Source of the DNA: an uncultured bacterium
GTDB taxonomy: Bacteria > Hydrogenedentota > Hydrogenedentia > Hydrogenedentales > JAEUWI01
Direction of reading: 5' to 3'
Length of the DNA stretch: 16,420 nucleotides
Assembly: GCA_963977445.1 (NCBI GenBank)
Contig: CAXBPH010000151.1
Span: 1-16,420 of the forward strand
Of this stretch, positions 1,386-16,420 are shown piece after piece (position 1 is the first letter of the stretch; the number at the start of each line of letters is the position of its first letter). A model generated the notes under the pieces. It did not search any database. It was given only the letters and a program-made list of their open reading frames with translations, and was not told where the DNA came from. A program made the translations under genes and the position numbers.

Positions 1386-1510
1386 GGAAAAACTCACGTT
1401 GTTCTTGTGCTTGAGGACAGCACCACCGCTCGAACGCCGATGAGGGCGTTCACAGCCACATAGATACTGTACCGCAGGGCACCTGAGGAATTAAATCTAT
1501 CGTACATTGC

Positions 1511-1540
1511 TTGACGTGGCGACGATGGTCTCTATAGAGT
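1511..1540 (+). promoter_or_regulatory. Putative sigma70-type promoter for the GH20-like gene
   Basis: TTGACG at 1511-1516, then TATAGA (16-nt spacer) or TAGAGT (18-nt spacer), about 57 nt upstream of the ATG at 1597. Confidence 0.45.
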
Positions 1541-1596
1541 GGTGTGACCTCGATCCAAGACCTGTTTTTTACAAAAGCCGTGCCAATGGGAAGCCC

Positions 1597-4359
1597 ATGA
1601 GACGATTGACCAACGCCCCCCTCGCCGGGAAACTGCCCGCAGGGACCCGACGTGCTGCGTCCGCCCTTGCCGGGGTTATTTTTATGCTGTCCGCCTCCGT
1701 TGCCATCGCTGGTCAAGAGCCGCCGTATATTTATTCTTCAGACGGGTTGGCCCCGGGGCAAACCATGACGAGCTGGCTCATTTGCGGCCCCTTTCCCAAT
1801 AGCGATGTACAGGACACTCCCACGGGTGAATGGGTACACGACGCCCGGTGCGTCGGACTCTACACCGACTTTCTGGTGGGCGCTGGCGGCGAATCCAGCA
1901 TTGCTCCCCAGGCCGGGTTGAAAGTACCTGCCCCCGATGGACAGTTGCACGGCTGGACGAGTATCACTGCGGCCCACGATCAGGTCTTTCTCGGCGACTA
2001 TATGTCCCCCACCATCAACCAGATTGCCTACGCGGCATGCTGGATTGACCGTGATCAGCCGGAAGATATTCTGATGGGCTTGGGAAGCAGTGACGGCATA
2101 CGTATCTGGGTCAATGGGACGGAGACCTTTCGCGTTCACGAGGGTCGCCCCCTGGCCCTCGACGACAACTATTTCCGCCTTCCTCTCGTGGCGGGACGGA
2201 ACCAGGTATTGGTCAAGATAGAAAATGGCGATGGACGTTGGGGCTTTGCGCTCCGACCTGTTGACAATGTGTCGGCGGTCAAGGCGCTCATTCCCCGGTT
2301 GAAAGATGTCCTACGCTTTGACTATCAAAAAAATGAAACCGGGTATACCGTAACCTTTGGCGACCCCACCATCGTGGGCAACCTCGAAAACCTCTCCGAA
2401 GCCAAGGTTGCTATTGAGACGAGCTCGGGCGAGCAGGCAGGCATGTTAACCGTTTCCCTGGGACGTCCCTTTTTTATACCCTACAGCGATTACGAAGATG
2501 AATCCTACCAGCTTTCGGGCGAAGTCCTCTGGCCCTATCGTGGCAAGGTAACGACGTCGGGATTGCTCTATCGGGGAGATTTGCGTAGCGAAGTCGTAGA
2601 AATGCTTCAGGGTACGCAGCCGGAACTGATACCTTCCCGGGCAAGTGACGCCTACACAAGCTTGCTGGGTACCACACGACGGGCAGACCGATTAAACCGT
2701 CTCAATGGCGAATCACAGGCCTATGCGTGGCTGAAAGACGGCTTGACGCAGGCGCTACAAGGCGCTGTCGGGCTTCAAAACAGCAACGACCCCTACGGTC
2801 GATTATTTCCCAAACCACGCAATGTGGGCACCAGTTCCAACGAGATGGTCCAGGTCACTGGCGATTGGACCCTTTCCATTGCAGACTCCATTTTCGATGA
2901 CGAACTGGACGATTCTCTGGTTTCCACGTGGACGGCCTACACGGACGCACAGACGGGCACCGTCATCGGGCAGGTCTACGTCCTTGCCTTGGAAACCGAT
3001 TTTCTGGCCACCCCGACATTGGAATTACGGAGCGATGATACGGAGTACAAAGAGCCTGCGGAATCCATTCGGGAACGGGTTCCGACTAATCCGGAAGGCT
3101 ACGCAATTCAAATCACCGGCAACCGCATCGTCGTTGCCGGGCGGACCGCCCGAGGGGCGGGCTATGGGATGGACACGCTGCTACAGCTCCTGGCCCAATC
3201 CACGACGCTTCCTACGGCGACAATAATCGACGAACCGGTGTACCCCACCCGGGCCATGGTCATTCCACTGGAAGGCTTTGACAACGAATTTCGAGCGGCC
3301 ATCGACGAAGCCGCGAAACTTCGGCAAAACACCGTATTTCTCCCGTCCTCCCTCTACCCCGACCTGGAAGATACGGAGATCCAACCGATCCTGAAAGAAG
3401 CCTACGCGTATTGTCGTGCCCGCTTTGTTGAACCCATTCCACTGGTCGAAACTTTTGGTGACAAGACGCTTGCCGCGACGATAGATCCAAATTTCCTGGA
3501 GGGACTCTCCGTCAGGGAACTGCCCGTCGAAGTGGACGACCTCCGCCGGGTCCACCTGCCCTATGATCGCATCCTGATGAACGAAAGCACCATGCCCCAA
3601 CTCAGGACGGCCAAGGGTTACAACGTCTTGCGCCTGGATCGGGATTTTGTTTTTGAGTCTGTATCTCCGCCCATCATCCAATTGAAGGGCAAGGCCCCTG
3701 TGCAAACGGGAGAGACGCTTCTGCTCACGGCGGATGTGGTTGATCTTTCCATCGCGTCCAACGGTGCCAGTTGCCCCTCTGACACGGGTGTTTGGCTCCT
3801 GACCGAAAAAATTATCCAGGGCATCTATACCCATCTTGCCCCCGTGGGCATTCACCTGGGACAGACCGGGGTCGGATATCTCAATCGGGACAGTCGTTGT
3901 CTGGCGCGTGAAATGCCCAACGCGTTGCTACTGGCCGATGCGGTACAAAAGAGCCACGACATTGTGAAGAACATTGATGAAAAAGCGACGCTCTATATGT
4001 GGGGCGATCAATTCAGCCCCTTCCAGCGCGCCCAGTCGCTTGACGCGATACAGGCGGCAGAATACCTCCCCAAAGACATCATCGTTCTGGACTGGTGGTT
4101 TAAGGGCGCCACCGCCTTTGACCGGTGGCGGGTGGAACAGGGCCTGCGCTACTTTGACCAGTTTGGCTTGAAGACCCTTGGCGTCGTGCGGGATGATCCC
4201 TTGAATATCCAGCAATTTGCCACCATGAACATCCACTTCTCACAACGATTTAAGGGCATCGTCCACCAGAATGAAGGAACGGGGAACGACGGGCGCTACC
4301 TTGCTGCGGAAGCCGGTTGGCAGGGTTCCACTTCGCTGGGGACTCCACTCACCGATTAG
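1597..4359 (+). CDS. Secreted multidomain GH20 (beta-N-acetylhexosaminidase)-like protein, probably catalytically degenerate
   Basis: ATG at 1597 after GGGAAG, in the frame of ORF 1507..4359. Signal peptide (..RRAASALAGVIFMLSASVAIA/G). Jelly-roll/PA14-like module (SWLICGPFPN..AYAACWID..GSSDGIRIWVNG..NQVLVKIENGDGRWGF). GH20 domain 2 (LFPKPR..EGYAIQITGNRIVVAGRTARGAGYGMDTLLQLL..IIDEPVYPTRA). C-terminal TIM-barrel-like region (IHLGQTG, MWGDQ, LDWWF). Confidence 0.8.
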   Translation: MRRLTNAPLAGKLPAGTRRAASALAGVIFMLSASVAIAGQEPPYIYSSDGLAPGQTMTSWLICGPFPNSDVQDTPTGEWVHDARCVGLYTDFLVGAGGESSIAPQAGLKVPAPDGQLHGWTSITAAHDQVFLGDYMSPTINQIAYAACWIDRDQPEDILMGLGSSDGIRIWVNGTETFRVHEGRPLALDDNYFRLPLVAGRNQVLVKIENGDGRWGFALRPVDNVSAVKALIPRLKDVLRFDYQKNETGYTVTFGDPTIVGNLENLSEAKVAIETSSGEQAGMLTVSLGRPFFIPYSDYEDESYQLSGEVLWPYRGKVTTSGLLYRGDLRSEVVEMLQGTQPELIPSRASDAYTSLLGTTRRADRLNRLNGESQAYAWLKDGLTQALQGAVGLQNSNDPYGRLFPKPRNVGTSSNEMVQVTGDWTLSIADSIFDDELDDSLVSTWTAYTDAQTGTVIGQVYVLALETDFLATPTLELRSDDTEYKEPAESIRERVPTNPEGYAIQITGNRIVVAGRTARGAGYGMDTLLQLLAQSTTLPTATIIDEPVYPTRAMVIPLEGFDNEFRAAIDEAAKLRQNTVFLPSSLYPDLEDTEIQPILKEAYAYCRARFVEPIPLVETFGDKTLAATIDPNFLEGLSVRELPVEVDDLRRVHLPYDRILMNESTMPQLRTAKGYNVLRLDRDFVFESVSPPIIQLKGKAPVQTGETLLLTADVVDLSIASNGASCPSDTGVWLLTEKIIQGIYTHLAPVGIHLGQTGVGYLNRDSRCLAREMPNALLLADAVQKSHDIVKNIDEKATLYMWGDQFSPFQRAQSLDAIQAAEYLPKDIIVLDWWFKGATAFDRWRVEQGLRYFDQFGLKTLGVVRDDPLNIQQFATMNIHFSQRFKGIVHQNEGTGNDGRYLAAEAGWQGSTSLGTPLTD

Positions 4360-4523: not shown

Positions 4524-6017
4524 ATGACAGATTCCGATCAACCACGTGCCGATCTCCCTGGCAAATCATCCAACCGACTGGCTACCATGCTGGTCCAGCG
4601 TGGTGCTGTCAACGCGACCCAAATGCAAGCGGCCCTCGCGCTCCAGGGGGATATTGCCCAATCGCTTGTGGACCTTGGCTTTATGAAAGAAGGGGAACTT
4701 ACCTCCTTTTTCGTGAAGGAAATGAAGATTCCCCGTTTGAATCTCCAGGACTATCAGGTAAATCCGGACATGGTGAAAATCGTCCCTCGTGAGCTCTGCC
4801 TGCGCTATCAACTGCTTCCCATGGACACGCTCGGAAAAAACCTCACCCTCGCCATGGTCAATCCACTGGACGACGCCGCTCTGGAGGCCGTTGGCGCGGC
4901 TTGCCCGGCCTATAGCATCAAGCCCTTTCTCTGCACCCGATTTGATTTCGAATCGGTGGCGAGCCGCGTCTTTCAGGACGCCGATGCCAAAGAGGCCGGC
5001 GGTAGTGGCATGAGCCTGGATAGTCTGGGCCTTCCTCCGACCCGCAAGGCTGCTGTGCCCACGCCATCGACACCACCAGCACCAGCACCAGCACCGGCCC
5101 CACCGCATGAGACGGATGAAGACGATGACGCCCATGCGACCATGATCTTCGACGATACGATGTCACCGGCCAATCGTTCGGGTGGCCCGTTGCGGTCCAG
5201 CCTCATTTGTCTTGATGGTTGGGAATTGGGACGGGAGATTGAGATTACCGGTAATTCCTATACCTTGGGTCGCTCTGCCGAGGCCGATACGACGATTCGT
5301 TCTCCCCTCATTTCCCGGGAGCATGCCCGTCTGACACGCAACTCAGAATACGGCCAGGACACCTTTGTCATTACCGATCTGAAGTCGAGTAACGGCACCT
5401 TCGTTAATAACATACCGGTGACGAGCACCCTCCTGCGTCACGGTGATCGCATCTTGCTGGGAGACGTGCTCTTCAAGTTTGTCCTCCTTGATGAGGTGGA
5501 GGCGCGTTTTCACAAGGACGTTCACCAACTCTACCGCATCCAAAAAGACACGGGCCTGCTGCCTGCCGATGCCTGGCGCAGCGAACTGGCCCGGGTGGTT
5601 GCGGCGGCCCCCGCGACCTCATTAAGCGTGTGTCTCATTGAAATGGACGGCCTCCAATCTATCCGGCAGGCCCACGGTCATATGGCCGGTGCTATCGTGC
5701 TGAATGACATCAGCGATCTGCTGAATCGCCAATTGGAGAAAACCGACCTGCCCGGGGACTACAGTCAGGAGCGAATTGCGGTCCTGTTTGAAGGCAAGCC
5801 GATTGAATCGGTCTTTCCCGTCCTGGAAGACCTGCGACGGGCGGTGGAGGTTCACGTTTTCCACCACAAAGAAGCGAGTTTCCGAAGCACGATCAGTGTG
5901 GGCGTTAGCTCCGTCTCCGATTCAGGCTTGGCCCCGGAAGCCGTCGTCTCCGCCCTGGAGAATGCTCTGGCACGTGCCATCGTCGAGGGCCGCAATCAGG
6001 TAAGCGTCGCCACGTAA
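4524..6017 (+). CDS. MshEN/T2SSE_N domain - Pro-rich linker - FHA domain - degenerate GGDEF domain protein
   Basis: The N-terminus RLATMLVQRGAVNATQMQAALALQ..LVDLGFM..IPRLNL..LLPMD..LTLAMVNPLD resembles the PilB/GspE N-domain. FHA motifs LGRS, SREH, SSNGTFVN and LRHGDRILLG are present. The GGDEF-fold region has DTGL, IEMDG, HGHMAG and TISVGVS..GRNQV, but YSQER at the GGDEF position. Confidence 0.92.
   Translation: MTDSDQPRADLPGKSSNRLATMLVQRGAVNATQMQAALALQGDIAQSLVDLGFMKEGELTSFFVKEMKIPRLNLQDYQVNPDMVKIVPRELCLRYQLLPMDTLGKNLTLAMVNPLDDAALEAVGAACPAYSIKPFLCTRFDFESVASRVFQDADAKEAGGSGMSLDSLGLPPTRKAAVPTPSTPPAPAPAPAPPHETDEDDDAHATMIFDDTMSPANRSGGPLRSSLICLDGWELGREIEITGNSYTLGRSAEADTTIRSPLISREHARLTRNSEYGQDTFVITDLKSSNGTFVNNIPVTSTLLRHGDRILLGDVLFKFVLLDEVEARFHKDVHQLYRIQKDTGLLPADAWRSELARVVAAAPATSLSVCLIEMDGLQSIRQAHGHMAGAIVLNDISDLLNRQLEKTDLPGDYSQERIAVLFEGKPIESVFPVLEDLRRAVEVHVFHHKEASFRSTISVGVSSVSDSGLAPEAVVSALENALARAIVEGRNQVSVAT
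5074..5097 (+). repeat. In-frame hexanucleotide tandem repeat (CACCAG)3-CACCGG encoding a Pro-Ala linker
   Basis: Directly visible; encodes part of PPAPAPAPAPP. Confidence 0.85.
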
Positions 6018-11104: not shown

Positions 11105-11224
11105 AGACACCGGAGGTAATTCACAGACCCGCCCCATCGTCGAGAGGGATGTTAAGGGGGAGGAATCTTGCAGAAATGGATTCCACGCTTCCACATGGGC
11201 CCCGTATTTTGGGGTCGCGTAAGA

Positions 11225-11253
11225 TTGCGCCCCGATAGCCAACTTGATATACT
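11225..11253 (+). promoter_or_regulatory. Putative sigma70 promoter for the pfkB-family gene
   Basis: TTGCGC-N17-TATACT with an extended -10 TG at 11245-11246, 46 nt upstream of ATG 11300. Confidence 0.65.
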
Positions 11254-11299
11254 CCAAGGGCTGCGAATTCATTACCTTTTTAACCCAAGGGCGACGTGT

Positions 11300-12247
11300 A
11301 TGTCTAGTGATCTTGTTACTATAGGTTGTGTGTGTGCCGATGTGAAAGCACAACCTGTAGATGAACTCCCGAAACGGGGTACCTTGGGCCTTGTGCCCTC
11401 TATCGATATGACTATGGGTGGCCTTGCGGGCGTGACTGCGGCCGTGTTCAGCCGCCTCGGTGGACAGGCTGCTTTTGCCGGCTGCCTGGGCAACGATGCC
11501 TTTGGCGACTTCCTCATCCGGGCCTTTCAGGATGCCAACGTAAACACCGACGGCATTCGTCGTGTGGATGGCTGCAACTCGGCGGCGACGGTGGTATTAA
11601 TTGGCAGTGACGGCGAGCGAACCTTCATTCACAACGTCGGTACGGTGGGCATTCTTTCGGAAAACGATATCGATTTTGATCTGGTTGGTCGGGCGAAGGT
11701 GTTTCACTGGGGCGGTCCAGGGCTTACCCCAAAATTGCATGGGGCACCCATTGGTCGGGTCTTCGAACGGGTACAGGCGCTCGGCGTCAAGACGTCTATC
11801 GACACCTGTTTCGACGGATCCAACACGTGGCTTCCCCTCATGGAAGCGGCCCTCCCCCACACCAATATTATCTGCACCAGCATGAGTGAAGCGCCCCACT
11901 ATACGGGCAAGACGGAACCCGACGACATCGTGCAATTTTTTCTCGATTATGGTGTGGAGTCCATCTTGCTGAAAATGGGTAGCGATGGGCTCATGGTCTG
12001 CAATGCCGAAAGCAAACATGTGTTCGCTTCCCACGACGTCAGCGTCGTCGATGGAACGGGTGCGGGCGATGCTGCCTGTGCAGGTTTTATTCATGGAATC
12101 ATCGAAGGATGGGATCTGGAGCGCTGTGGTGCGCTGGCGAATGCGGTCGGCGCGTTGACCGTCCAGACGCTGGGCAGTGCGGGCAACAATATCTCTCTCG
12201 AAGCCGCGCTGGCGCTGGCGGAGAAACAGCCCTGTCACCAGTCCTGA
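11300..12247 (+). CDS. PfkB/ribokinase-family carbohydrate kinase
   Basis: ATG at 11300 (MSSDLVTIGCVCADV) after AAGGG. Motifs GG..TAAVFSRLG..AGCLGNDAFG, DGERTF, LKMGSDG and VVDGTGAGDAACAGFI (catalytic Asp and anion hole). Confidence 0.93.
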   Translation: MSSDLVTIGCVCADVKAQPVDELPKRGTLGLVPSIDMTMGGLAGVTAAVFSRLGGQAAFAGCLGNDAFGDFLIRAFQDANVNTDGIRRVDGCNSAATVVLIGSDGERTFIHNVGTVGILSENDIDFDLVGRAKVFHWGGPGLTPKLHGAPIGRVFERVQALGVKTSIDTCFDGSNTWLPLMEAALPHTNIICTSMSEAPHYTGKTEPDDIVQFFLDYGVESILLKMGSDGLMVCNAESKHVFASHDVSVVDGTGAGDAACAGFIHGIIEGWDLERCGALANAVGALTVQTLGSAGNNISLEAALALAEKQPCHQS

Positions 12248-12369: not shown

Positions 12370-15300
12370 GTGATCTACGTGACTTTTCAATCGAAGCACC
12401 TTAGCCCTATCGCCGCAGTAGTCATCACGATGATGATTACGACGACAGCATTGGCACAGTCGTTCACCCAGACCCAGGAAATTCGGGGGCAATTCCGGGA
12501 TGGTGTCATCGACTTGGGCCGTGGGCAGTTAATTGTTGCCGTGTATGAACGGGACAGTCTCTGGCGGGTCGACCCGGCAACGGGCGACGTCGCCACGCGG
12601 ATCAAGGTCGGCAAAGGTCCAGTCGCCCTCGCATCCGACGGAACCTTCATCGCCTGTGCCAACTATCTGGATGACTCGGTAAGCCTTATTCGCCTCAGCG
12701 ATTTAAGTGTCGTTTCAACCGTTGCGGTCGGTGACAGTCCCAGTGCGATTGCCGCCCTGGGCGATGGCCGATTCATTGTGGTCAACACCTTTTCCGACTC
12801 CCTCTCTGTCATCGACACGCGGGGCACCGTTTCCGTATCCAGCATGGAGGGTGCACCGGCTGTCCCCGTGGCCATCGCGGTCACCCGTGACCAGGTGGCC
12901 GTAGCGAGTCGTGCCGACCGGAAAATCTATTGTTATGACCGGGCTTCGCTAAGCCCTTCGAAACAGATTGCCCTTTCCGGGGCCACGACGGATCTGGCCG
13001 CTCTGGCGGGAGACGTGGTCATTGCACTGGGGCCCTCGGGGCTTCAACGCATCGACTTAAGCACCGGCAACGTGGGAAAGAACATTTCTCTTAAGGCACG
13101 CAGTATTGATGCGGATGGTGGGCTTCTTCATGTAGCCACCGACGATAGCTATTTGACCTACGATGAGAACCTCGTTCCCGTGGCGACTCACCCCCTTGCG
13201 GAAGGTGCCTCGGTCATCGTCGTACGGGATGGCGTGGTTGCCCTCCTCGACCCCAAGTCGCAAATCATGCAGACCCACAATCTGGCCGCTCTGCAACCGG
13301 CGGCCGCCACCGCACCTGCTCCGGCAGCAGAACCCGCTCCGGATAACCGTGGCGACATGGTCATTGTTGAGGCCAAGCCGGTCGTGGAAACTGCGGCACC
13401 CATGCCCGATTCCACACCGACCGAAGCGACCCCCGAGGCCGTAGCGCCGACTCCTGCGGTGGAAGAAGCAACGGCGGCACCGGAGATGGTCGCGACAACT
13501 ACCGCCGGACCTACAGGCAATGACTCGGCGAGCGTACGGCGCAACCCTTTCCTTTCGAGCGGCGTACGTGCGCCCTCACCGGGTCGTCCGTCCGTCTCTC
13601 CCCTGGAACAGCTTTCCCAAAAGACCATAACGGACGCCGTCATCCGGCCAACCGAGTTTGGTTCGAGCTCGGGCGGCTTCCAGGCCCCTGATTTGACGAA
13701 GCCCCTGGAAAACATCAAGTTTTCATCGGCCAAGCGCGCTTCTTCTGAAGCGCCGACGAGCTACAAGGATTTTCGGGCGGAGCTTGGGGACATGAAGTTG
13801 CAGTCGGACAACTTCACCCACAAACAGGAGCCCGTCGAAATTGAGGCCGAGGGCAATGTGCTGATTACCCAGCAATCCTCGACTATTTCCGCCGATCTTA
13901 TTCATTACATACTGGACCCTGTCCCTGCTGCGGACGTGAAGAAGAACGAAACGATCCTGGAAGGCGAGATGACTGAAAAGGGTGCCCCCCTCGACCAAGG
14001 GCGACTCATCCTGGATAATGCCCACATCGTCGAACCGACCCGTGAGATGACCGCCGAACACGTGGAATACGATTTCCGAACCGGCGCGGGCGAACTTACC
14101 AAAGCCAAAGGGCAGGCCGGCATTTACTACTTTTCCGCGGAAAAACTTCACCTCCATGGTCCGCAAACCCTCAGTGGCGATGATGTGTGGGTCACCACGT
14201 GTGATCGCCCCAATCCTCACTATCGCATTCGCCTGAGTGATGTGGAACTTGTTGACGGCGAGCCCACAGGCGGGTCCAATGCCCGCCTCCAGTTGGGCAA
14301 GGCCAACACCCCACTCTATCTGCCCCGATGGCACCGTGGCGGCGTGGGTGGCTCACCGTGGAATATAGATTTCGACAGCGGTCGACAGGCGAAAACGGGC
14401 TACTACGTCAATTTGGGCCAGCAGTATGAGATCAATCCCGATGTTTCTCTTGGACCCCGGATTTTCGCGACGGAGAAGGAAGGGGTGGGCCTTGGCGCGG
14501 ACTTGTACTACGATTTCATGGAAAATCCCGCATCACATTTGTACCGAACCAAAGGCGAAGCCCACGGGCTCTTCACCACCAAAGAACGGGGCTACGTTCA
14601 TTGGTATCACCGCTATGAATACAGCAACGATCTGGTCGTACGTGCACAGGTCGAACACTGGAGTGACCAGGACTTCTACAAAGACTTCTACTACGACACC
14701 TTCCGAAACCGGTCTCGTCCCCGCAGCTTCGTCAATCTAACCTACCGCCAACCAAACTATATTGCCACCGGCACGGTGCGCACCCAGACCCACGGTTGGT
14801 TCAGCGAAACGGAGCAGGCCCCGGAATTCACGTTCCATCAACTCGAGCGCAAAATCGCCAACGACCTCTACTTCACGTTTGATACGGTCAATGGCTATTA
14901 CAATCGTGAACCCTATGGTATCGATGCGGCCCGGTCGGTTAACGTGGCCCGCCTGACGTACAACTGGGATCCCCTGCCCGCCCTGGCCATTACGCCATTC
15001 CTGCAGCTGGACACCAGCTTCTACACCCGTGATCGCCGTGACAACAACCCGTATGCCCGTTTTGGGTCGACTGCAGGCGTCACCGCCCAATCCCGGTTTA
15101 GCCGCACCTACAATGGACGCTGGGGGTTTTCTGCCTTCAAGCACATCGTTGTCCCTTCCGTCACCTATTCCTACCGGCCCCGGACCAACGTGAAAGCGCC
15201 TGAGATCCCCCAGTTCGATCCTCTTGACAGTGATTTTGGTCGCAGCCGCATAGAGCTTAAACTGAGCAATGTCTTTTATGGTCGGGACGCCGAATCGGGC

Positions 15301-15909
15301 GAAGTCTGGCAGGTAGGTCGCATCACCCTGTATCAGGGCAATGACTTCTGGAATGAAACACGCCGAACCGAAGATTATGAAGTGGAAATCGATATTCGCC
15401 CGCGGCCCTGGTGGGGATTTCAGTTGGTGGGCGAGCGGCAGGAAACGTCAAACGAAGACAGCAGTCTTGCCCAATTCTCACTGGCCCGGAACTATCCCCG
15501 CTTCTACGAGGAGGTTATCGGCAACATCTTTGGCAGTCCTAATGCGCAGGACTTCAGTGGTCGTTTTGGCGACTACAACCGTGTGCTTTCCCAAGTCTAT
15601 TATGACGGCGAGCCCCGCGGCGGCAAGTTTTCGGGCCGGGTTGGTTTTGCCTACACCGAGACCCAGAGTCAGGTTTTCAACCGCGAAGCCCTCTATGGAT
15701 TGGGCTATAAAATCAGCGATAAGTGGGGCTTCGGGTTTGAGCATATCTACGACCTGGAAGACAATAACCTGCGCAGACAGACTTACGAACTGCGTCGGAG
15801 TCTCCACTGCTGGGAAACGGCGATTCGATTCCGGGATCGTGAATCGGGTTTCGACCTCAATGTGGAATTCAACATCAAGGCCTTCCCTGGAAGTCGCGTG
15901 AAGTTTTAA
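12370..15909 (+). CDS. lptD: LPS-assembly protein LptD homolog with an extra N-terminal YVTN-type beta-propeller and low-complexity linker
   Basis: Signal peptide ending ALA/Q. YVTN-like blades (VGKGPVALA..ACANYLDDSVSLI; VGDSPSAIA..VVNTFSDSLSVID). OstA-like jelly roll (IEAEGNVLITQ..ISAD; MTAEHVEYDFRTGAG). LptD signature VTTCDRPNPHYRI. Aromatic-rich barrel with WSDQDFYKDF, FKHIVVPSVTYSY and LHCWE, ending in Phe. Confidence 0.87.
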   Translation: MIYVTFQSKHLSPIAAVVITMMITTTALAQSFTQTQEIRGQFRDGVIDLGRGQLIVAVYERDSLWRVDPATGDVATRIKVGKGPVALASDGTFIACANYLDDSVSLIRLSDLSVVSTVAVGDSPSAIAALGDGRFIVVNTFSDSLSVIDTRGTVSVSSMEGAPAVPVAIAVTRDQVAVASRADRKIYCYDRASLSPSKQIALSGATTDLAALAGDVVIALGPSGLQRIDLSTGNVGKNISLKARSIDADGGLLHVATDDSYLTYDENLVPVATHPLAEGASVIVVRDGVVALLDPKSQIMQTHNLAALQPAAATAPAPAAEPAPDNRGDMVIVEAKPVVETAAPMPDSTPTEATPEAVAPTPAVEEATAAPEMVATTTAGPTGNDSASVRRNPFLSSGVRAPSPGRPSVSPLEQLSQKTITDAVIRPTEFGSSSGGFQAPDLTKPLENIKFSSAKRASSEAPTSYKDFRAELGDMKLQSDNFTHKQEPVEIEAEGNVLITQQSSTISADLIHYILDPVPAADVKKNETILEGEMTEKGAPLDQGRLILDNAHIVEPTREMTAEHVEYDFRTGAGELTKAKGQAGIYYFSAEKLHLHGPQTLSGDDVWVTTCDRPNPHYRIRLSDVELVDGEPTGGSNARLQLGKANTPLYLPRWHRGGVGGSPWNIDFDSGRQAKTGYYVNLGQQYEINPDVSLGPRIFATEKEGVGLGADLYYDFMENPASHLYRTKGEAHGLFTTKERGYVHWYHRYEYSNDLVVRAQVEHWSDQDFYKDFYYDTFRNRSRPRSFVNLTYRQPNYIATGTVRTQTHGWFSETEQAPEFTFHQLERKIANDLYFTFDTVNGYYNREPYGIDAARSVNVARLTYNWDPLPALAITPFLQLDTSFYTRDRRDNNPYARFGSTAGVTAQSRFSRTYNGRWGFSAFKHIVVPSVTYSYRPRTNVKAPEIPQFDPLDSDFGRSRIELKLSNVFYGRDAESGEVWQVGRITLYQGNDFWNETRRTEDYEVEIDIRPRPWWGFQLVGERQETSNEDSSLAQFSLARNYPRFYEEVIGNIFGSPNAQDFSGRFGDYNRVLSQVYYDGEPRGGKFSGRVGFAYTETQSQVFNREALYGLGYKISDKWGFGFEHIYDLEDNNLRRQTYELRRSLHCWETAIRFRDRESGFDLNVEFNIKAFPGSRVKF

Positions 15910-15999: not shown

Positions 16000-16420
16000 A
16001 TGACGAAAACGATGATTGCCATGAACGACTCTCTCAAAAACGCTGCCGAAGCTCTCGTTCCCGAAGTTCGCGCATTGCGTCACGAATTACACCAGCATCC
16101 GGAAATCCGCTTTGAAGAGCACTGGACCTCCGCGCGGGTAAAACAATTCTTGACGGAGAACGGCATCCCCCACACGGGCGGACATGCCAAGGGTACGGGC
16201 ATCGTCGCCACCATCTCGGGCACCGGGGATAAGACGGTGGCCTTACGGGCCGACATGGATGCCCTTGAGATTCAGGAAGAAACTGGACTCCCCTATGCCT
16301 CGACCATAGCGGACCGTATGCATGCCTGCGGGCATGACGGTCACACGTCCATGTTGTGTGGCGCGGCGAAACTACTCTGGACGCAACGGGAGCAGCTCGC
16401 CGGAACGGTGAAGTGTATTT
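16000..16420 (+). CDS. M20D-family amidohydrolase (hippurate/IAA-amino-acid hydrolase-like); 3' end runs off the window
   Basis: Translated by hand: ..LRHELHQHPEIRFEEHWTS..GTGIVATI..VALRADMDALEIQEETGLPYAS..MHACGHDGHTSMLCGAA. In-frame ATGs are at 16000, 16012 and 16021, so the true start is uncertain. Confidence 0.93.
   Translation, partial: MTKTMIAMNDSLKNAAEALVPEVRALRHELHQHPEIRFEEHWTSARVKQFLTENGIPHTGGHAKGTGIVATISGTGDKTVALRADMDALEIQEETGLPYASTIADRMHACGHDGHTSMLCGAAKLLWTQREQLAGTVKCI

Follow-up and report, generated by a model that had tools for sequence, protein, structure and literature searches.

Model Gram-negative bacteria cannot live without the lipopolysaccharide (LPS) translocon protein LptD, a target of both drugs and phages, and what is known of it comes almost wholly from Proteobacteria. 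Canonical LptDs, such as those of Escherichia coli, Shigella, Klebsiella and Neisseria (structures 4q35, 5iv9, 8h1r and 7omm), are composed of an OstA-type beta-jelly roll, located in the periplasm, and a very large C-terminal beta-barrel. According to PMC6164715, the jelly roll of LptD binds LptA head-to-tail. A stretch of 16,420 nucleotides from an uncultured bacterium (assembly GCA_963977445.1, contig CAXBPH010000151.1), hereafter the window, carries a gene at 12370..15909 on the forward strand which encodes the LptD of a member of Candidatus Hydrogenedentota. The protein shares the jelly roll and the barrel with the canonical forms and differs from them by about 440 extra N-terminal residues, which comprise a beta-propeller, a tether and a segment preceding the jelly roll.

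The gene had been picked out by an earlier prediction from the DNA letters, which described LptD fused to an N-terminal propeller, proposed a variant lipid-transport machine and knew of no characterised LptD of this kind. A full-text literature search on LptD, propellers and Hydrogenedentota, outside subscription journals and bioRxiv supplements, likewise found no description of an LptD-propeller fusion. The recognition and the analysis are new and the sequences are not, as fused proteins are already public in large numbers and are partly named LptD. That the protein joins an LptD core to a folded, acidic YVTN-type propeller, an acidic tether and a conserved segment, and that this fusion is old, selected and accessory, can be stated with great confidence. 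The overall explanation which we favour, a Hydrogenedentota LptD equipped with an accessory tethered binding head, is given a probability of about 45%. The features of the gene are as follows.

12370..15909, forward strand: whole propeller-tether-LptD fusion gene; one open reading frame (ORF) of 1179 amino acids (aa), stop codon included
12370..12459, forward strand: signal peptide, residues 1-30 (read by eye; helix 11-24 in the AlphaFold2 model; N-termini of homologues)
12460..13299, forward strand: seven-bladed YVTN-type beta-propeller, residues 31-310 (AlphaFold2, Foldseek, family profile)
13300..13557, forward strand: disordered acidic Ala/Pro/Thr/Glu tether, residues 311-396 (low model confidence, 30-48; family composition)
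13558..13779, forward strand: conserved pre-jelly-roll segment, residues 397-470 (consensus R-A-P-x4-R-P-S ... F-G-x3-G-F-x-P-D-W)
13780..14289, forward strand: LptD N-terminal beta-jelly roll, residues 471-640 (AlphaFold2 strands from about residue 447; Pfam, profile, Foldseek)
14290..15906, forward strand: LptD C-terminal beta-barrel, residues 641-1179 (Foldseek, DSSP, phmmer)

Reading frame and domain architecture

The listing of ORFs in the window bears out the single uninterrupted frame of 1179 aa that had been read initially: it opens with GTG and contains no internal stop. No overlapping ORF of comparable length lies on either strand of 12370..15909, the longest on the opposite strand being only 91-203 aa. 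In a word-indexed protein search, full-length homologues matched the query at 37-68% identity and about 96-100% coverage. An AlphaFold2 (AF2) model of the full-length protein, built on an alignment of 110 sequences (A1), reached a mean predicted local distance difference test score (pLDDT) of 84.3 and a predicted template modelling score (pTM) of 0.61, and its domains follow each other in the order originally proposed, namely signal peptide, propeller, linker, jelly roll and barrel. By-eye reading of the signal peptide places its h-region in the stretch modelled by AF2 as helix 11-24, after which ALA/QS follows, and a lipobox Cys is absent. An alternative GTG start at 12379, three codons downstream, agrees with the 'MTF' start of the homologues. 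A public database copy (P0002, 1159 aa) begins at Met21, in the window region 12370-12432, and would thus be without a signal peptide; homologues favour the upstream GTG start. A scan for promoters and terminators found sites no more numerous than in shuffled sequences.

The identity of the C-terminal part is left undecided by Pfam alone on the query, where LptD_N (PF03968), at 18.8 bits, stays below its cut-off of 20.4. That identity is established by structural comparison, exhaustive sequence search and the domain matches of relatives. When the full AF2 model was compared with the PDB by Foldseek, the first 27 matches listed were all LptD chains (E 4.6e-28 to 6.6e-14), so the barrel is LptD-like when modelled, as the original prediction supposed. 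The LptD alignments comprised 760-890 columns at full length, with target-normalised TM-scores of 0.46-0.68 and 12-13% sequence identity. The model shows an OstA-type jelly roll and then a barrel of about 26 strands: it is confident again from about residue 430 to the end, with about 13 strands as far as residue 642 and long strands thereafter, and 25-28 DSSP strands are assigned to the barrel, a count which varies with the jelly-roll end chosen. A low-confidence insertion occupies residues ~516-545 of the jelly roll, which also contains the conserved Cys611. Run exhaustively against 1.84 billion cluster representatives, phmmer returned 6690 matches at E<=1e-3 and 98 at E<=1e-30, and tied query residues ~550-1020 to canonical LptDs of about 700 aa (E 1e-33 to 1e-23); among 13 scanned proteins of that length, PF04453 or PF19838 exceeded its cut-off in 11 and some LptD-family domain was found in 12. 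At E<=1e-3, PF04453 was matched by 12 and PF03968 by nine of 40 fused relatives, while the family profile recognised LptA 8onu (E 5e-6) and LptD 7omm (E 1.4e-4). Because of the Foldseek result, the phmmer links to canonical LptDs and the Pfam matches in relatives, the C-terminal ~710 residues are, as modelled, a genuine LptD jelly roll and ~26-strand barrel.

Two cysteines of this core are widely conserved in A1: C611 (97%) lies where the jelly roll ends, C1147 (83%) close to the C-terminus. Their positions are presumably equivalent to those of the cysteines that form the interdomain disulfide of E. coli LptD. They could form a similar bond here, the one of E. coli being described as essential in PMC6164715. 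No Cys precedes the jelly roll in the query, so a second disulfide of the E. coli type cannot form. In the ESM Atlas, the query's own cluster (Hydrogenedentota) scored 0.99 and LptD clusters from other phyla 0.85-0.86, values which serve as leads only. The same resource holds a cluster of 238 members, most often from Planctomycetota, of ~1200-aa (1203-aa) 'OstA family' proteins without a common Pfam domain. Much-enlarged LptDs with different additions may occur in other phyla too.

Ahead of this core, residues 31-310 form 27 strands which, with an N-terminal closing strand, make up seven four-stranded blades at a pLDDT of about 97 in the full model, and the propeller folded in isolation (alignment A2, 38 sequences) reached a pLDDT of 96.3 and a pTM of 0.92. 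The span assigned from the model, 12460-13299, is nearly identical to the first estimate of about nucleotides 12457-13290. The best Foldseek match of the isolated propeller was 1l0q (E 1.1e-14, root-mean-square deviation 2.5 A over 257 columns, query-normalised TM-score 0.75), followed by generic seven-bladed scaffolds, e.g. G-beta, beta-TrCP and Fbw7. Against solved propellers, the family profile recovered 1l0q (E 8e-40), hydrazine synthase beta (8.5e-16) and YncE 3vgz (6e-11). AF2 strands, Foldseek and profile agree on seven blades of the ~40-aa YVTN repeat, whose consensus V-G-x-G-P ... is discernible in blades 2-3. The query stays slightly below the curated thresholds of Pfam YNCE PF21783 (26.5 bits, cut-off 27.1) and TIGR02276 (25.8 bits, cut-off 27.85), and PF21783 is matched by eight of the 40 fused relatives at E<=1e-3. 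By profile and modelled fold, the propeller is a divergent YVTN/YncE-like member. As all three domains of the protein lie at the Pfam margin (12, 9 and 8 of 40 relatives match), architecture databases can be expected to miss the fusion for the most part.

Residues conserved in at least 80% of the fused rows are mainly the Gly, Pro, Ala, Leu and Phe of the repeat structure, the positions including G81, G83, P84, A88, A95, F135 and P166; R43, N98 and D143 come in addition, and blades 1-3 are better conserved than blades 4-7. This pattern bears on the idea that the propeller is an enzyme of lactonase, lyase or cyclase type, acting on LPS or another periplasmic substrate by the export site. SGL, Lactonase and Vgb_lyase are each weakly matched by one of 40 family members, and the query itself reaches E 0.16 with Vgb_lyase and E 0.22 with Glu_cyclase_2. 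All these matches are far below cut-off, however, no constellation of His/Asp/Glu metal ligands is found among the residues conserved at 80% or more, and the nearest folds retrieved by Foldseek are non-catalytic scaffold propellers; a catalytic role is accordingly regarded as highly improbable. The query propeller is acidic (pI 4.8), and all 38 propellers compared are net negative with a median pI of 4.9, a uniformity which would argue against direct binding of anionic lipids or nucleic acids. A distant relative, P0169 (1379 aa), has two tandem propeller regions (residues ~67-330 and 382-650) ahead of its LptD core.

The propeller and the core are separated by two different stretches, which had been read together as one linker, Pro/Ala/Thr/Glu-rich and then Ser/Pro-rich. 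The first half is indeed disordered, with pLDDT below 50 in the full model at residues 319-396 (and, beyond it, at 406-416); the Ser/Pro-rich half (about nucleotides 13558-13779) is instead a conserved segment. The tether of the query is rich in Ala, Pro, Thr and Glu and has a net charge of -8. Among 122 fused family members it contains 19% Ala, 19% Pro and 13% Glu, and its length has a median of 107 aa (range 30-240) with a median net charge of -11. No tandem repeat was found in the DNA of the query tether. A hydrophobic, strand-like island, MVIVEAKPV, lies within it at residues 330-338 (nucleotides 13357-13383). The pattern [LM]-V-[IV]-V-E-A-x-P occurs in 20 of the 122 fused proteins, against a mean of 1.7 and a maximum of 5 in shuffles, and the carriers fall mainly in the query's own subclade; the island is a candidate short linear motif.

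In the segment preceding the jelly roll, the majority residue at P393, P402, P407, F437 and D441 is shared by 89-97% of the 110 A1 rows (P402 97%, P407 90%, F437 89%, D441 91%), and pLDDT climbs from 60 to 93 along it. The segment is also found in the 26 relatives without a propeller described below. It is probably an enlarged form of the N-terminal element ahead of the canonical jelly roll, where a short helix is reported in PMC6164715. To judge from the alignment, its ~75 aa are a phylum-specific addition, and they may count for more in LptA docking than the propeller.

Distribution and history of the fusion

The word-indexed search returned 146 homologues at E<=1e-3, nearly all of them from Candidatus Hydrogenedentes. 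Their public names are 'LPS assembly protein LptD', 'YVTN family beta-propeller protein' or 'hypothetical protein', the last being the label of most copies. Domain-wise BLASTP found propeller, jelly roll and barrel together in 122 of 255 fetched proteins, with 105-315 aa (median 182) between propeller and jelly roll. For a scan at the level of species, one genome per species was considered (GTDB representatives), and 79 loci, carrying 79 different accession prefixes, were kept from 113 relatives. The fusion is present in one ORF at 45 of them; 26 are propeller-less, with a closed 5' end and a signal peptide of their own; eight are cut at the 5' side by a contig end, and none is split. No separate propeller gene was found at any of the 79 loci, within flanks reaching up to 10 kb. 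Stand-alone propeller genes were considered as a split form and rejected, P0190 and P0230 being partial records and P0196 and P0231 lying on contigs of 1.9 and 1.1 kb.

The record titles of 60 loci name Hydrogenedentota, -tes, -tales or Hydrogenedens, while among the remaining 19, 13 titles read Nitrospir*, three 'uncultured bacterium', and one each FCB group, Bathyarchaeia and 'metagenome'. In the LptD tree, these 19 loci interleave with the Hydrogenedentota rows. The titles Nitrospirales, Nitrospiraceae and Bathyarchaeia (L008, L017, L020, L023, L025, L033, L034, L036, L037, L046, L055, L069, L078 and L079) are likely to be placeholder or wrong taxonomic labels.

An assembly chimera, or a stop codon recently lost between two genes, could in principle have produced such a frame, and the original prediction had itself allowed that relatives might show two separate genes. 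They do not: since the same in-frame architecture recurs in 45 independent assemblies and no locus keeps the genes apart, the fusion is real, and both kinds of artefact are excluded as far as comparative data allow. The two parts have also diverged together. Pairwise identities of propeller and barrel are correlated across 45 fused sequences (44 loci and the window; Mantel r 0.78, with none of 999 permutations as high), although the propeller is less conserved, with a mean pairwise identity of 33% against 54% for the barrel. Nei-Gojobori dN/dS was computed on 16 pairs, and in the seven with propeller dS<1 it amounted to 0.10-0.30 for the propeller and 0.01-0.06 for the barrel, the remaining pairs being saturated. 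These values indicate that the propeller is kept by selection where it is present, but under a much weaker constraint than the core. With co-divergence and purifying selection added to the recurrence of the frame, the chance of an artefact is negligible.

A maximum-likelihood tree of jelly roll and barrel (83 rows, quick search, LG+G4, rooted on canonical LptD) shows fused and unfused rows interleaved, with a minimum of eight changes, at least seven of which are forced by well-supported branches. In an extended tree with more distant members, the main clade begins with fused branches, and the distant fusions P0170, P0177 (named Hydrogenedentota) and P0169 branch beneath it, P0169 near the base of the family. 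Constraining the 13 unfused rows of this extended set to a single clade was rejected (p-AU 3.7e-6), the constrained group having been set by architecture after the tree had been seen. For two sister pairs, L020/L026 and L008/L010, the alignment extends across signal peptide and tether, and the propeller alone is missing. The simplest reading of the tree and the alignments is one old fusion, inherited vertically, followed by repeated clean deletion of the propeller; loss is preferred to gain because of the outgroup root and the implausibility of repeated identical fusions. Read in this way, the propeller has been lost at least seven times within the phylum while the LptD core was retained. The description as a variant machine therefore has to be relaxed, as the propeller is not obligatory: co-inheritance, purifying selection, an evolution several-fold faster than that of the barrel and repeated loss together mark it as an ancestral accessory module.

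The propeller-less relatives are also informative on a possible built-in aid to biogenesis, one of three roles, with anchor and gate, that the original prediction had offered. A fast-folding propeller and its tether would keep the large, slow-folding LptD precursor soluble, or assist its arrival at the BAM complex or its folding. Going by sequence order, the propeller would emerge first into the periplasm, and dispensability where other chaperones suffice would suit its repeated loss. The demands of the process in E. coli, where LptD assembly requires BAM, LptE and disulfide reshuffling according to PMC6164715, count in the same direction. Nevertheless, in the Pfam scan and among the Foldseek matches listed the propeller shows no similarity to BamB, SurA or Skp past the general propeller fold, and the 26 unfused relatives fold the same core (barrel 50-58% identical) without it, which makes such an aid unlikely.

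Two propeller-less clades (L011, L013, L016, L017, L018, L022 and L070-L079) have alternative N-termini in which N-R/K-x-N-F follows the signal peptide, continuing in one of them as a helix-like A-L-x2-L-R. By its sequence, this motif resembles a small 'head' that substitutes for the propeller.

The propeller at the periplasmic edge of the translocon

From the topology of LptD, the propeller would lie in the periplasm, as first proposed, suspended at the N-terminal edge of the jelly roll, an edge used for LptA docking in E. coli. Our tentative view of its action, plausible though somewhat short of even odds, is that of a non-catalytic binding head which recruits a partner on a flexible leash. 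The leash of about 100 residues would set the volume that the propeller can explore and so widen the capture radius of the translocon. A candidate partner would be a periplasmic or inner-membrane-side protein, e.g. the growing Lpt bridge or an envelope-assembly factor, and its capture would improve the assembly or coupling of the LPS export route without being required for it. An accessory binding head is preferred because the propeller combines the lack of a catalytic signature, scaffold-like nearest folds, an acidic surface, fast evolution and repeated loss.

Several observations weigh against this binding head. On the query, PF04453 has no match in the Pfam scan, and Pfam and NCBIfam scores remain below cut-off for all three domains. 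No clearly conserved binding face emerges from the propeller alignment (conservation of top loops 0.45, of bottom loops 0.39, Mann-Whitney p 0.16, the two sides being assigned from strand order alone, without coordinates). Repeated loss means that the cell copes without the propeller, whose contribution is then modest or conditional, and a head binding a highly conserved Lpt component would not be expected to evolve so fast. The gene neighbours are uninformative, and neither the window nor the surveyed flanks contain lpt genes (lptE and lptA included), bam genes or surA. A complex prediction of the propeller (residues 31-310) with jelly roll and barrel (residues 470-1179), both entered as alignments, gave 0.06 against a mark of 0.32 and, having been run without controls, counts neither way.

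The features of the tether and the pattern of loss can also be accommodated by an envelope anchor or spacer, through which the propeller would attach to peptidoglycan or some other polymer of the periplasm, the tether holding the translocon in place relative to the wall. Periplasmic wall-binding domains on outer-membrane barrels are familiar from the LysM domain of intimin and the C-domain of OmpA. In favour of an anchor are the length (30-240 aa), flexibility and Pro content of the tether; moreover, the nearest relative of the propeller in both sequence and fold is an archaeal cell-surface-layer YVTN propeller, and fast evolution and repeated loss suit a generic, replaceable anchoring. On the other hand, Pfam and NCBIfam scans of the query did not reveal any known motif or domain for peptidoglycan binding, all 38 propellers compared are acidic, and YVTN propellers are not known to have an established wall-binding activity. 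An anchor is for these reasons held to be fairly unlikely.

The position of the tether raises one further alternative. As it departs from the jelly roll at the N-terminal side, to which LptA docks in E. coli, the propeller might by topology act as a gate, docking on the jelly roll or on the periplasmic mouth of the barrel and competing with or controlling LptA docking and LPS flow. The individual domains are confidently modelled, but a pTM of only 0.61 and a tether pLDDT of 30-48 imply that no fixed arrangement of propeller and core is predicted, and at least seven losses would be surprising for a regulator of an essential flow. A gate is thus judged to be very unlikely.

The tethered binding head can be extended into a bolder form, to which we attach a low probability. 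The outer-membrane-anchored propeller would reach through the periplasm and capture LptB2FGC/LptA or another envelope machine, so that the translocon templates its own bridge. If this were true, it would represent a principle of bridge assembly not known from the proteobacterial Lpt system, and the lineages which lost the propeller would have swapped in another head or factor.

Two conserved neighbours flank the gene.

11168-12247, forward strand: PfkB-family sugar kinase, upstream of lptD; conserved neighbour
16000-16419, forward strand: M20 amidohydrolase, downstream of lptD; conserved neighbour

In a survey of the flanks of 80 sequences (the 79 loci and the window), a PfkB kinase lies directly upstream in 44 and an M20 amidohydrolase directly downstream in 28. 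The kinase was considered as the LPS-heptose kinase RfaE/HldE, which is not supported (50 bits against a cut-off of 345); it scores below every NCBIfam cut-off and no specific equivalog fits. A connection of the kinase with the sugar metabolism of LPS is conceivable but unsupported. The other genes of the window encode a xylose-isomerase-like TIM barrel, a GH20b-domain protein, an MshEN-FHA-GGDEF protein, a pectate-lyase-like protein, a MOSC protein, a HAD hydrolase and a strictosidine-synthase-like propeller, in addition to the PfkB kinase and the M20 peptidase, and none of them is an envelope-biogenesis gene. Two of these products have noteworthy architectures. The protein of 497 aa encoded at 4524-6017 (forward strand) joins an MshEN domain of the c-di-GMP-binding type to FHA and GGDEF diguanylate cyclase domains, an unusual signalling architecture, and in the protein of 950 aa encoded at 1507-4359 (forward strand) Pfam recognises only GH20 'domain 2' (residues 433-575), no catalytic domain being assigned.

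Comparison with known systems

The interest of the fusion lies in its position: a domain which is found across the phylum, kept by selection and yet repeatedly discarded sits where the periplasmic LPS bridge meets the translocon. The many fused and unfused sister pairs constitute a natural experiment which could reveal the partner of the domain or the envelope property that it serves, and their comparison could show how Lpt bridges are assembled outside model organisms. The interest would be higher still if the tethered head organises a trans-envelope bridge.

Among propellers at outer-membrane machines, BamB is an eight-bladed lipoprotein with a lipobox Cys, and TolB combines a six-bladed propeller with an alpha/beta N-terminal domain. 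The likeness to BamB and TolB drawn by the original prediction extends to a periplasmic propeller at an outer-membrane machine and holds as an analogy only. The query has a seven-bladed YVTN/WD40-like disc which, unlike BamB, lacks a lipobox Cys (ALA/QS) and is covalently fused to its machine, and which, unlike TolB, starts straight after the signal peptide; neither protein occurs among the 45 Foldseek matches listed for the isolated propeller. Proteins of the LpoB/LpoA type, lipoproteins which activate peptidoglycan synthases, carry a globular head on a long disordered linker, anchored in the outer membrane and capable of extending through the periplasm to a partner. The query has no sequence or fold relation to them and is compared with them for the proposed design principle of its tether.

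The same seven-bladed YVTN repeat fold is found in 1l0q, from a Methanosarcina surface-layer protein, and in YncE 3vgz, but such propellers are free or part of surface-layer proteins, whereas that of the query is the N-terminal module of an outer-membrane barrel. The closest comparison is offered by the propeller-less LptDs of Hydrogenedentota (e.g. L010, L026, L056 and L070; P0097 and P0070), which are nested among the fused forms. They have the same core, with a barrel 50-58% identical, and share with the fused proteins the pre-jelly-roll segment, an acidic low-complexity N-terminal stretch and the PfkB family as upstream neighbour, while in some of their clades the signal peptide is followed by N-R/K-x-N-F and not by a propeller.

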